From: a virus | Taxonomy: Duplodnaviria; Heunggongvirae; Uroviricota; Caudoviricetes | Direction: 5' to 3' (one strand) | Virus record (IMG/VR): IMGVR_UViG_2619619135_000001 | Location: 1 to 40,341 of that record | DNA length: 40,341 nucleotides | Shown: piece after piece, positions 39,697 through 40,341 of the stretch | How the letters are laid out: every line of letters starts with the position of its first letter | Position numbering within the stretch: the first letter of the stretch is position 1 | Notes under the pieces: model-generated | The model's database searches: none | What the model was told of the DNA's origin: nothing | What the model saw: the letters and a program-made list of their open reading frames with translations, nothing else | Position numbers and translations under genes: made by a program

Positions 39697-40341
39697 TTAC
39701 TCAACATAAACATATTTAGAAGCAAACCAAATCATCGGCTTTCCGTTTACACCCTTATATTTATCGTTGAAATTAGCATCTGTCTCCGTAGCGGAAAAGG
39801 TTATAAAATACATACCGGGCGATTCAACTTTGGCAACATAATTGAGTGTTCGCTCCGCCGATATTGGCACTTTCCATTCATATATTGGTATGTTTTTTTC
39901 ATTTGTATTTGATGCTATATCTTCATATATATTAGGGGTGTAAGTCTTTATGGATTTAACTTTATCACCACGCACCTCAATTGCCCGTATAGACACTGAG
40001 TCATTTTTTAGCTTAATGAATATCGGTTCTGAACCACTATTTTTTATACTCACAACTGGAGTAATATAGTATCCATTAGAAGACTTCGTAAAGGTGGCAT
40101 CAATATTAAAAAATGTTGATTCTGTATTTCTTATTTTCTGCTGAAGTTCAGCATATTCAGCTTCGGCTTTATCTTTCTGATGTAAAGCATCAAATGTGTA
40201 TGCTCCCCATACCAATGTTAGGATGGCGCATAAAGCGATAGCAATATTGTTGAAGTTGCTATGGTTTTGCCAGATATTCCTAGCTTGCCAAGCAAGAACA
40301 ATCACCAATAGCGCTAATAATACCCATCCCACAATAATCAT
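39697..40341 (-). CDS. Membrane-anchored cargo protein, possibly 5'-truncated by the window edge
   Basis: ORF runs to the last base of the window; two N-terminal hydrophobic helices then an Asn/Lys-rich soluble domain; AT-rich; no HExxH motif, so not Lit. Confidence 0.4.
   Translation of the reverse strand: MIIVGWVLLALLVIVLAWQARNIWQNHSNFNNIAIALCAILTLVWGAYTFDALHQKDKAEAEYAELQQKIRNTESTFFNIDATFTKSSNGYYITPVVSIKNSGSEPIFIKLKNDSVSIRAIEVRGDKVKSIKTYTPNIYEDIASNTNEKNIPIYEWKVPISAERTLNYVAKVESPGMYFITFSATETDANFNDKYKGVNGKPMIWFASKYVYVE

Follow-up and report, generated by a model that had tools for sequence, protein, structure and literature searches.

The window, i.e. the whole 40,341-nt stretch of DNA analysed here, starts in host chromosome (positions 1-1694, with ycgX, ymgL, ymgK and iraM) and ends on a small membrane-protein gene, referred to below as gene B, whose ATG makes up the final three bases. 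Gene B is convergent with the integrase gene, int, from which a 64-nt spacer separates it, and its product is identical across 214 of 214 residues to WP_032248487.1 of E. coli EC96, whose DNA is 99.9% identical to the window in the gene B region. On the other side of gene B, and entirely outside the window, EC96 carries gene A (WP_032248488.1, 360 aa), which starts ~1.1 kb beyond the window, only just within the icd attachment site; it lies 114 nt inward of the icd 3'-end copy that the prophage carries. The coordinates of the features found in the window are collected in Table 1.

Table 1. Gene B, its protein segments and the associated prophage features in the window (residue numbers of B refer to the 216-aa form)
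Feature	Position	Strand	Description and basis
Gene B ORF	39697-40341	-	214 aa, ATG start; membrane protein (216 aa with the ATG 6 nt past the window end); ORF list
B TM helix 1 (TM1)	40291..40341	-	residues 3-19; hydropathy 3.15, AlphaFold2 (AF2) helix 2-27; sequence variable
B TM helix 2 (TM2)	40195..40245	-	residues 35-51; preceded by an invariant NFNN motif; hydropathy 2.05, alignment invariants
B juxtamembrane helical stalk	40126..40194	-	residues 52-74; FDALxQxDKAxAE...; coiled-coil-like, continuous with TM2; AF2 helix 29-74
B C-terminal Ig-like beta-sandwich	39703..40116	-	residues 78-215
Spacer hairpin	39638..39704		between convergent B and int; RNA fold -17 kcal/mol, z = -3.05 vs shuffles
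IntE-type tyrosine integrase	38505..39632	+	Pfam Arm-DNA-bind_1 2e-37, Phage_integrase 3e-19; RefSeq intE; 84% DNA identity to K-12 e14 intE
Excisionase (xisE-like)	38279..38524	+	Pfam Exc 3e-12; RefSeq xisE
Displaced icd 3' fragment	1480..1695		88.5% identity with the functional icd 3' end beside A in EC96

Extent of gene B and its coupling to gene A

The original prediction described an AT-rich ORF beyond int that runs into the window edge. The GC content of gene B is indeed low (35.6%, with 46.5% for int and 48.9% for the window) and the window does end on its ATG, but the gene is near-complete. Extension past the window in EC96 recovered both the start of B and its neighbours, A and icd: another in-frame ATG lies two codons upstream of the window-end ATG and is the RefSeq start of WP_032248487.1 (216 aa). 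Homologues are mostly annotated with the second ATG as start (214 aa), and in EC96 a G-run suited to a Shine-Dalgarno role is located 6 nt before it. Gene B is essentially whole within the window, gaining at most two codons outside, and does not belong to a larger conserved host gene. The position of the edge is most likely an artefact of boundary placement rather than biology. Other IMG/VR contigs are also cut at or within B, one viral contig ending at residue 3 of the protein, as the window does, and four others starting at or inside the gene.

Judged from its conservation, gene B is a genuine gene under selection. Its homologues form 28 clusters at 90% identity, from Enterobacterales and Pseudomonas, with 36 invariant positions across 23 aligned sequences, and a profile search retrieved 282 representatives (50% clustering), all about 190-260 aa long. 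The hairpin in the spacer between B and int is plausibly a terminator shared by the two genes, as suggested by its predicted fold; a consensus terminator scan did not call it.

Gene B is the distal gene of a translationally coupled two-gene cargo operon, A+B. The stop codon of A and the start codon of B overlap or abut in EC96 (ATGAACATG). In the Pseudomonas, Citrobacter, Providencia and metagenome loci, the two genes overlap by up to 4 nt or are separated by up to 5 nt. A is directly upstream of B, on the same strand, in each of the 39 retrieved loci in which both flanks are present. The pairwise identities of A and of B are tightly correlated (r = 0.97 over 19 distinct pairs), indicating that the two genes have co-diversified without partner swapping. 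A consensus promoter scan upstream of A gave nothing over background. The original prediction of a single cargo gene is thus right as to prophage cargo but not as to number, the partner lying outside the window. Intermediate relatives of B still have a DUF8426-type or A-like gene in front of them, and one of them follows an A-like C-terminus. For the most distant relatives, with a single TM helix, the short contigs at hand show neither an A-like gene nor any tightly coupled gene upstream, and therefore the B fold is not intrinsically tied to A.

Predicted architecture of the two proteins

Two Kyte-Doolittle hydrophobic segments and the helices of the AF2 model (pLDDT 82.5), which leads through a hairpin of two long helices into a beta-sandwich, agree with a membrane-anchored protein carrying two N-terminal hydrophobic helices, as had been proposed from the ORF. 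The proposed Asn/Lys-rich character of the soluble part is borne out by its composition (Lys 10.6%, Ile 10.0%, Asn 8.1%). TM1 is missing from the distant single-TM relatives, whose alignments begin only at about profile position 26-40. The densest invariants are located before, in and after TM2 (NFNN, C40, W47, G48, Y50, T51, F52, D53, A54, L55 and Q57), those of the stalk being F52, D53, A54, L55, Q57 and A61. This peak of conservation around TM2 argues that the membrane segment of B is more than an anchor.

Concerning the topology, the N-tail of the two-TM members is uncharged and their TM1-TM2 loop carries 1-3 Lys/Arg, the single-TM relatives carry 2-6 Lys/Arg in the N-tail, and the segment past the conserved TM helix is neutral to acidic. 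By these positive-inside counts, which put the pre-TM segment in the cytoplasm, the Ig-like domain leans periplasmic. For the E. coli protein the charge bias is weak, with 1 Lys/Arg in the loop vs 2 past TM2. Paired cysteines (CX4-6C) occur in the C-terminal domain of one B subclade, cysteine parity being a weak test of topology as 121 of the 172 members (70%) are cysteine-free. We consider a cytoplasmic TM1-TM2 loop and a periplasmic Ig-like domain to be somewhat probable from these sequence features.

The HMM and structure searches suggested for B assigned it no family by HMM and, by structure, a generic Ig-like sandwich. In Pfam, NCBIfam, PHROGs and PADLOC, B gave chance-level matches only, driven by the TM helices and the coiled coil; these were limited to spanins in PHROGs, and no PADLOC family was matched. 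The same searches with 32 distant relatives likewise returned chance-level matches, one relative showing a weak match to DUF4352, an Ig-like domain. A sequence search of the PDB with B found no match, a structure search of the PDB found generic Ig-like sandwiches only, and matches in BFVD were weak (TM ≤ 0.33), with no resemblance to a viral protein of known function.

Gene A encodes a protein whose N-terminal half is modelled by AF2 (pLDDT 78.7 for A) as a PUA-like beta-barrel of the EVE/YTH/ASCH fold. This half is thus predicted, at the level of modelled structure only, to be EVE/YTH-like, a fold used for reading modified bases. The C-terminal half is helical, matches no known fold and is without recognisable catalytic motif. 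Homologues of A form 55 clusters at 90% identity, and the invariant residues include W17, R20, Y25, H41, D43, N75, Q79 and W131, among which W17, Y25, H41, D43, N75 and W131 are candidates for aromatic-pocket or modified-base contacts. The Pfam search of A returned no family at E ≤ 1, with no match to EVE, YTH or ASCH, the NCBIfam search no domain, and a profile search of PDB sequences nothing relevant. Residues 15-201 of A do match five PADLOC PDC-S02 HMMs (best E = 3e-15), spanning positions 3-185 of the 324-position model. Precomputed matches to PF28530 (DUF8426) exist for many A homologues, not including the EC96-type A and its closest relatives, and one E. coli homologue is named 'DUF8426 domain-containing protein' in RefSeq.

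The int-icd slot and other genomic contexts

The displaced icd fragment near the window start, annotated in RefSeq as a partial isocitrate dehydrogenase pseudogene, matches the functional icd next to A, indicating that the element is an e14-type prophage inserted in icd with A+B in the int-att interval. As this fragment is the far copy of the attachment site, the prophage spans from 1480..1695 to past the window end, and the window holds one host-prophage junction without the other. Gene B is hence cargo in the slot where K-12 e14 carries lit, as first proposed. The proposal that B is no Lit metalloprotease also stands: the HExxH motif is absent from B and from A, B has no match to the Lit HMM of PADLOC, on which K-12 Lit itself scores 8.5e-124, and B as Lit or as a metalloprotease is ruled out. 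The region is present at ≥99.9% identity in 6 of 5,426 complete E. coli genomes, and in all six genomes carrying the window-type allele A+B and int are intact. The EC96 prophage (NZ_CP060748.1, 2650180-2659321) is degraded, with IS66, IS3 and IS1 and a McrC/AAA-ATPase pair in place of the tail region that the window has.

The int-icd slot was surveyed by sampling other E. coli with related integrases (502 genomes). Its content in K-12 is Lit with ymfE and ymfD, and elsewhere a Septu-type PtuA with an HNH protein, DarT with DarG, a 775-aa TPR protein, or hypothetical and unannotated genes, in keeping with the original view of the int-att interval as a cargo hotspot. In E. coli AH01 (locus L052, 5744-8215), the slot contains three hypotheticals (298, 154 and 204 aa) and an integrase remnant, with no PADLOC matches.

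A+B is found in three kinds of slot, namely the e14-type int-icd interval, the replication-to-portal gene interval of P2-like prophages, and the ends of satellite-like islands, in addition to a Pseudomonas island. In Providencia, the pair lies beside icd without an integrase. In the P2-like slot it adjoins PDC-S06 (PrrC-like) in Citrobacter and, in E. coli, a reverse transcriptase family gene with an HTH gene, possibly a retron; in the satellite-like islands, which encode a D5-type primase, it stands at the island end. The pair is rare: any variant occurs in about 14 of 5,426 complete E. coli genomes, species-representative genomes gave only 3 loci, and 17-18 IMG/VR viral contigs carry it. Searches of sequenced phage isolates returned no homologue of A or B, and A had none in plasmids. 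Overall, A+B resides in accessory slots that elsewhere hold known defence systems.

Several other genes of the window were noted. A full-length McrA-type type IV methyl-directed restriction enzyme (1929-2762, -; PADLOC mREase_IV 6.5e-203, Pfam HNH) is attR-proximal, as is mcrA in e14, so that the prophage has a modified-DNA-dependent nuclease at one end and the predicted EVE-like A with B at the other. A Pin-type serine invertase (2869-3459, -; Resolvase 1.2e-51) abuts an ORF for a tail-fibre C-terminus (3450-3959, +; Gp53-like_C), the invertible tail-fibre switch usual in e14-like phages. Another candidate for defence within the prophage is a 300-aa trypsin-like peptidase (23727-24629, -; PADLOC candidate PDC-S45 1.3e-44). 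A 384-aa NA37/YejK-like nucleoid-associated protein (26211-27365, +; Pfam 3.7e-46, TTG start) is followed after 20 nt by a 406-aa ORF without Pfam or PADLOC match (27385-28605, +); co-oriented, and on the opposite strand to most neighbouring ORFs, these two may form a further pair of moron or cargo genes. At 35800-36400, several overlapping ORFs upstream of a yfdP-like gene coincide with a local rise in GC (0.51-0.56), and the EC96 RefSeq annotation has a frameshifted hypothetical gene there; Rfam and tRNA scans of the window, this interval included, were empty.

Candidate function and relation to known systems

The explanation that we prefer, with confidence slightly short of even, is that A+B is an anti-phage system in which A, as an EVE-like sensor, signals to its membrane partner B. 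The pocket of A would bind a modified-base ligand arising in infection; candidates for this ligand are the modified DNA or RNA of the phage and a methylated mononucleotide freed when the phage degrades the host chromosome, as in Metis (also named PUA-Cal-HAD). The helical C-terminal domain of A would couple ligand sensing to B, which would then oligomerise via TM2 and the stalk and either impair the integrity of the inner membrane or stop infection at a membrane step, with the result that phage development would abort. In favour of this reading are the tight coupling of the two genes, their placement in slots shared with defence systems, the predicted fold of A, the flags from PADLOC and DefensePredictor, the precedent of Metis and the dense invariants around TM2.

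The pair has already been flagged computationally as putative defence, and may be a variant within modified-base-sensing defence. Table S10 of DefensePredictor, which lists 1,041 unvalidated E. coli clusters, has both the B cluster WP_032248487.1 (mean log-odds 5.18) and the A-type WP_024234794.1 (log-odds 6.53) as putative novel defence genes, with no known-defence homologue recorded for either. Both values exceed the authors' stringent log-odds cut-off of 4, which favours the defence reading; their place near the low end of the predicted set and the overall validation rate of 45% count against it. A+B is not among the validated DS systems in those parts of the DefensePredictor text that were accessible. 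Against a sensor-effector relation count the lack of any recognisable effector enzyme in A or B, the generic nature of the Ig-like domain, and the topology, as a periplasmic domain leaves only the short loop of B for contact with a cytoplasmic A. The distant single-TM relatives of B with no A-like gene upstream, the failure of a PDC-S02 representative when tested singly, and the lack of matches to the pair in sequenced phage isolates and plasmids also weigh against the preferred explanation. No paper text containing the protein accessions or PF28530 was found in the literature. Likewise, no system joining an EVE/YTH protein to a TM protein appeared in the accessible parts of the EVE census, the CoCoNuT paper and the PUA-Cal-HAD paper, or in keyword literature searches.

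The same topology would suit a reversed polarity similar to that of Kiwa, which we consider unlikely, with B as sensor or anchor and A as effector. The periplasmic Ig-like domain would detect adsorption or injection, or tether the complex, and A, once recruited or released, would use its EVE-like domain to bind the modified nucleic acid of the incoming phage and would block replication or expression without killing the cell. The positive-inside counts, the charged N-tails of the single-TM relatives, the cysteine pairs of one subclade and the predicted nucleic-acid-reader fold of A without catalytic domain all agree with this polarity, but the charge bias of the E. coli protein is weak, 70% of the family has no cysteine in the domain, neither A nor B matches KwaA or KwaB in PADLOC, and enzyme-free binding would be an unusual effector mode. 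A periplasmic B could also act in superinfection exclusion, stopping DNA injection or a receptor step like Sie-type and Imm-type prophage proteins, with A as regulator or chaperone and not as sensor. That B is a small inner-membrane protein encoded beside a prophage int, with an Ig-like domain that is possibly periplasmic and a weak DUF4352 match in a distant relative, would fit such a role. We nevertheless regard it as improbable, as it leaves unexplained the strict coupling to a conserved 360-aa EVE-like protein across elements and hosts, and B resembles no viral protein of known function in BFVD and nothing in PHROGs beyond chance-level spanins.

The pair may, on the other hand, have no immune role and merely share its slots with defence genes, as a toxin-antitoxin or addiction module or as a lysogenic-conversion function acting on the envelope or on stress. 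Addiction modules commonly pair a membrane toxin with a cytoplasmic protein, non-defence morons are also found in cargo slots, over half of the tested DefensePredictor candidates failed validation, and PDC-S02 failed in one test. This is quite unlikely in our view, given that the pair occupies three independent classes of defence hotspot, with Lit, Septu, DarTG, PDC-S06 or a reverse transcriptase family gene beside it or at equivalent positions, that the predicted modified-base-reader fold of A is typical of type IV restriction and of Metis-type sensing, and that two independent predictors flag A or B. A variant that we hold to be doubtful would join both sides of the inner membrane, an enzyme-less PUA/EVE reader being wired to a bitopic membrane protein with its Ig-like domain in the periplasm. 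Signalling could then run from inside to outside, detection of a modified base or nucleotide in the cytoplasm leading to an envelope response, or from outside to inside, phage contact in the periplasm licensing a cytoplasmic protein to bind modified DNA. The accessible parts of the literature searched describe neither arrangement for EVE/YTH/PUA proteins.

If A+B does defend, it would add a membrane-coupled branch to type IV restriction and to sensing of the Metis or PUA-Cal-HAD kind, and provide a compact two-protein model (360 + 216 aa) for signalling by a PUA-fold reader without catalytic domain. It would also account for PDC-S02-type genes failing alone, and make the e14 int-icd slot a usable E. 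coli defence hotspot. If it does not, the pair is one among roughly 1,000 unvalidated predicted E. coli clusters.

Among known systems, Lit, the e14 cell-death peptidase and an abortive-infection gene, occupies an identical position and orientation relative to intE in the e14-type prophage, but A+B is a pair rather than a single gene, with no HExxH motif, no match to the Lit HMM and a fold unrelated to that of Lit. Kiwa shares with A+B the combination of a small membrane protein and a cytoplasmic protein, for which nucleic-acid binding is predicted in the case of A. KwaA is a membrane sensor, a 4-TM protein without Ig-like domain, and KwaB, a DUF4868 protein, is a DNA-binding effector. Gene order and folds differ from those of A+B. 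PDC-S02 has in common with A the N-terminal reader-like domain, but the C-terminal halves differ, and PDC-S02 is defined as a one-gene system, while B always follows A. Itself an unvalidated candidate, PDC-S02 has been reported in surveys only, and one representative, tested alone, left the strain E. coli B unprotected from T4, T5 and T7. Type IV restriction couples such readers to catalysis (VcaM4I, EVE-HNH; the N-terminal readers of McrB in McrBC), while A and B have no nuclease, GTPase or other catalytic domain and the operon has no nuclease or GTPase neighbour. The partner of A is instead a membrane protein, an arrangement absent from the accessible passages of the EVE census and of the PUA-Cal-HAD survey.

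Metis, as PUA-Cal-HAD, senses m6-dAMP: when the phage brings about the breakdown of host DNA, the m6dAMP set free is bound in the PUA-like pocket of MisA. Its type I comprises MisA (PUA-like plus calcineurin-like phosphoesterase) and MisB (HAD), and its type II MisC (an oligomerising 3-TM effector with an intracellular nucleotide pocket) and the HAD phosphatase MisB. A+B is similar in being a two-gene cargo, with a predicted PUA-superfamily sensor as in type I and a small TM protein as in type II. It differs in that reader and membrane protein form two distinct polypeptides, that no HAD (MisB) neighbour is present in the operon or in the other contexts, that A has no calcineurin-like metallophosphatase domain, and that B, compared with MisC by description only, has two TM helices, a stalk and an Ig-like domain rather than three TM helices and a nucleotide pocket. 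By this comparison, Metis is the closest experimentally characterised analogue of A+B, which is not a member of that system but may work in a similar way.
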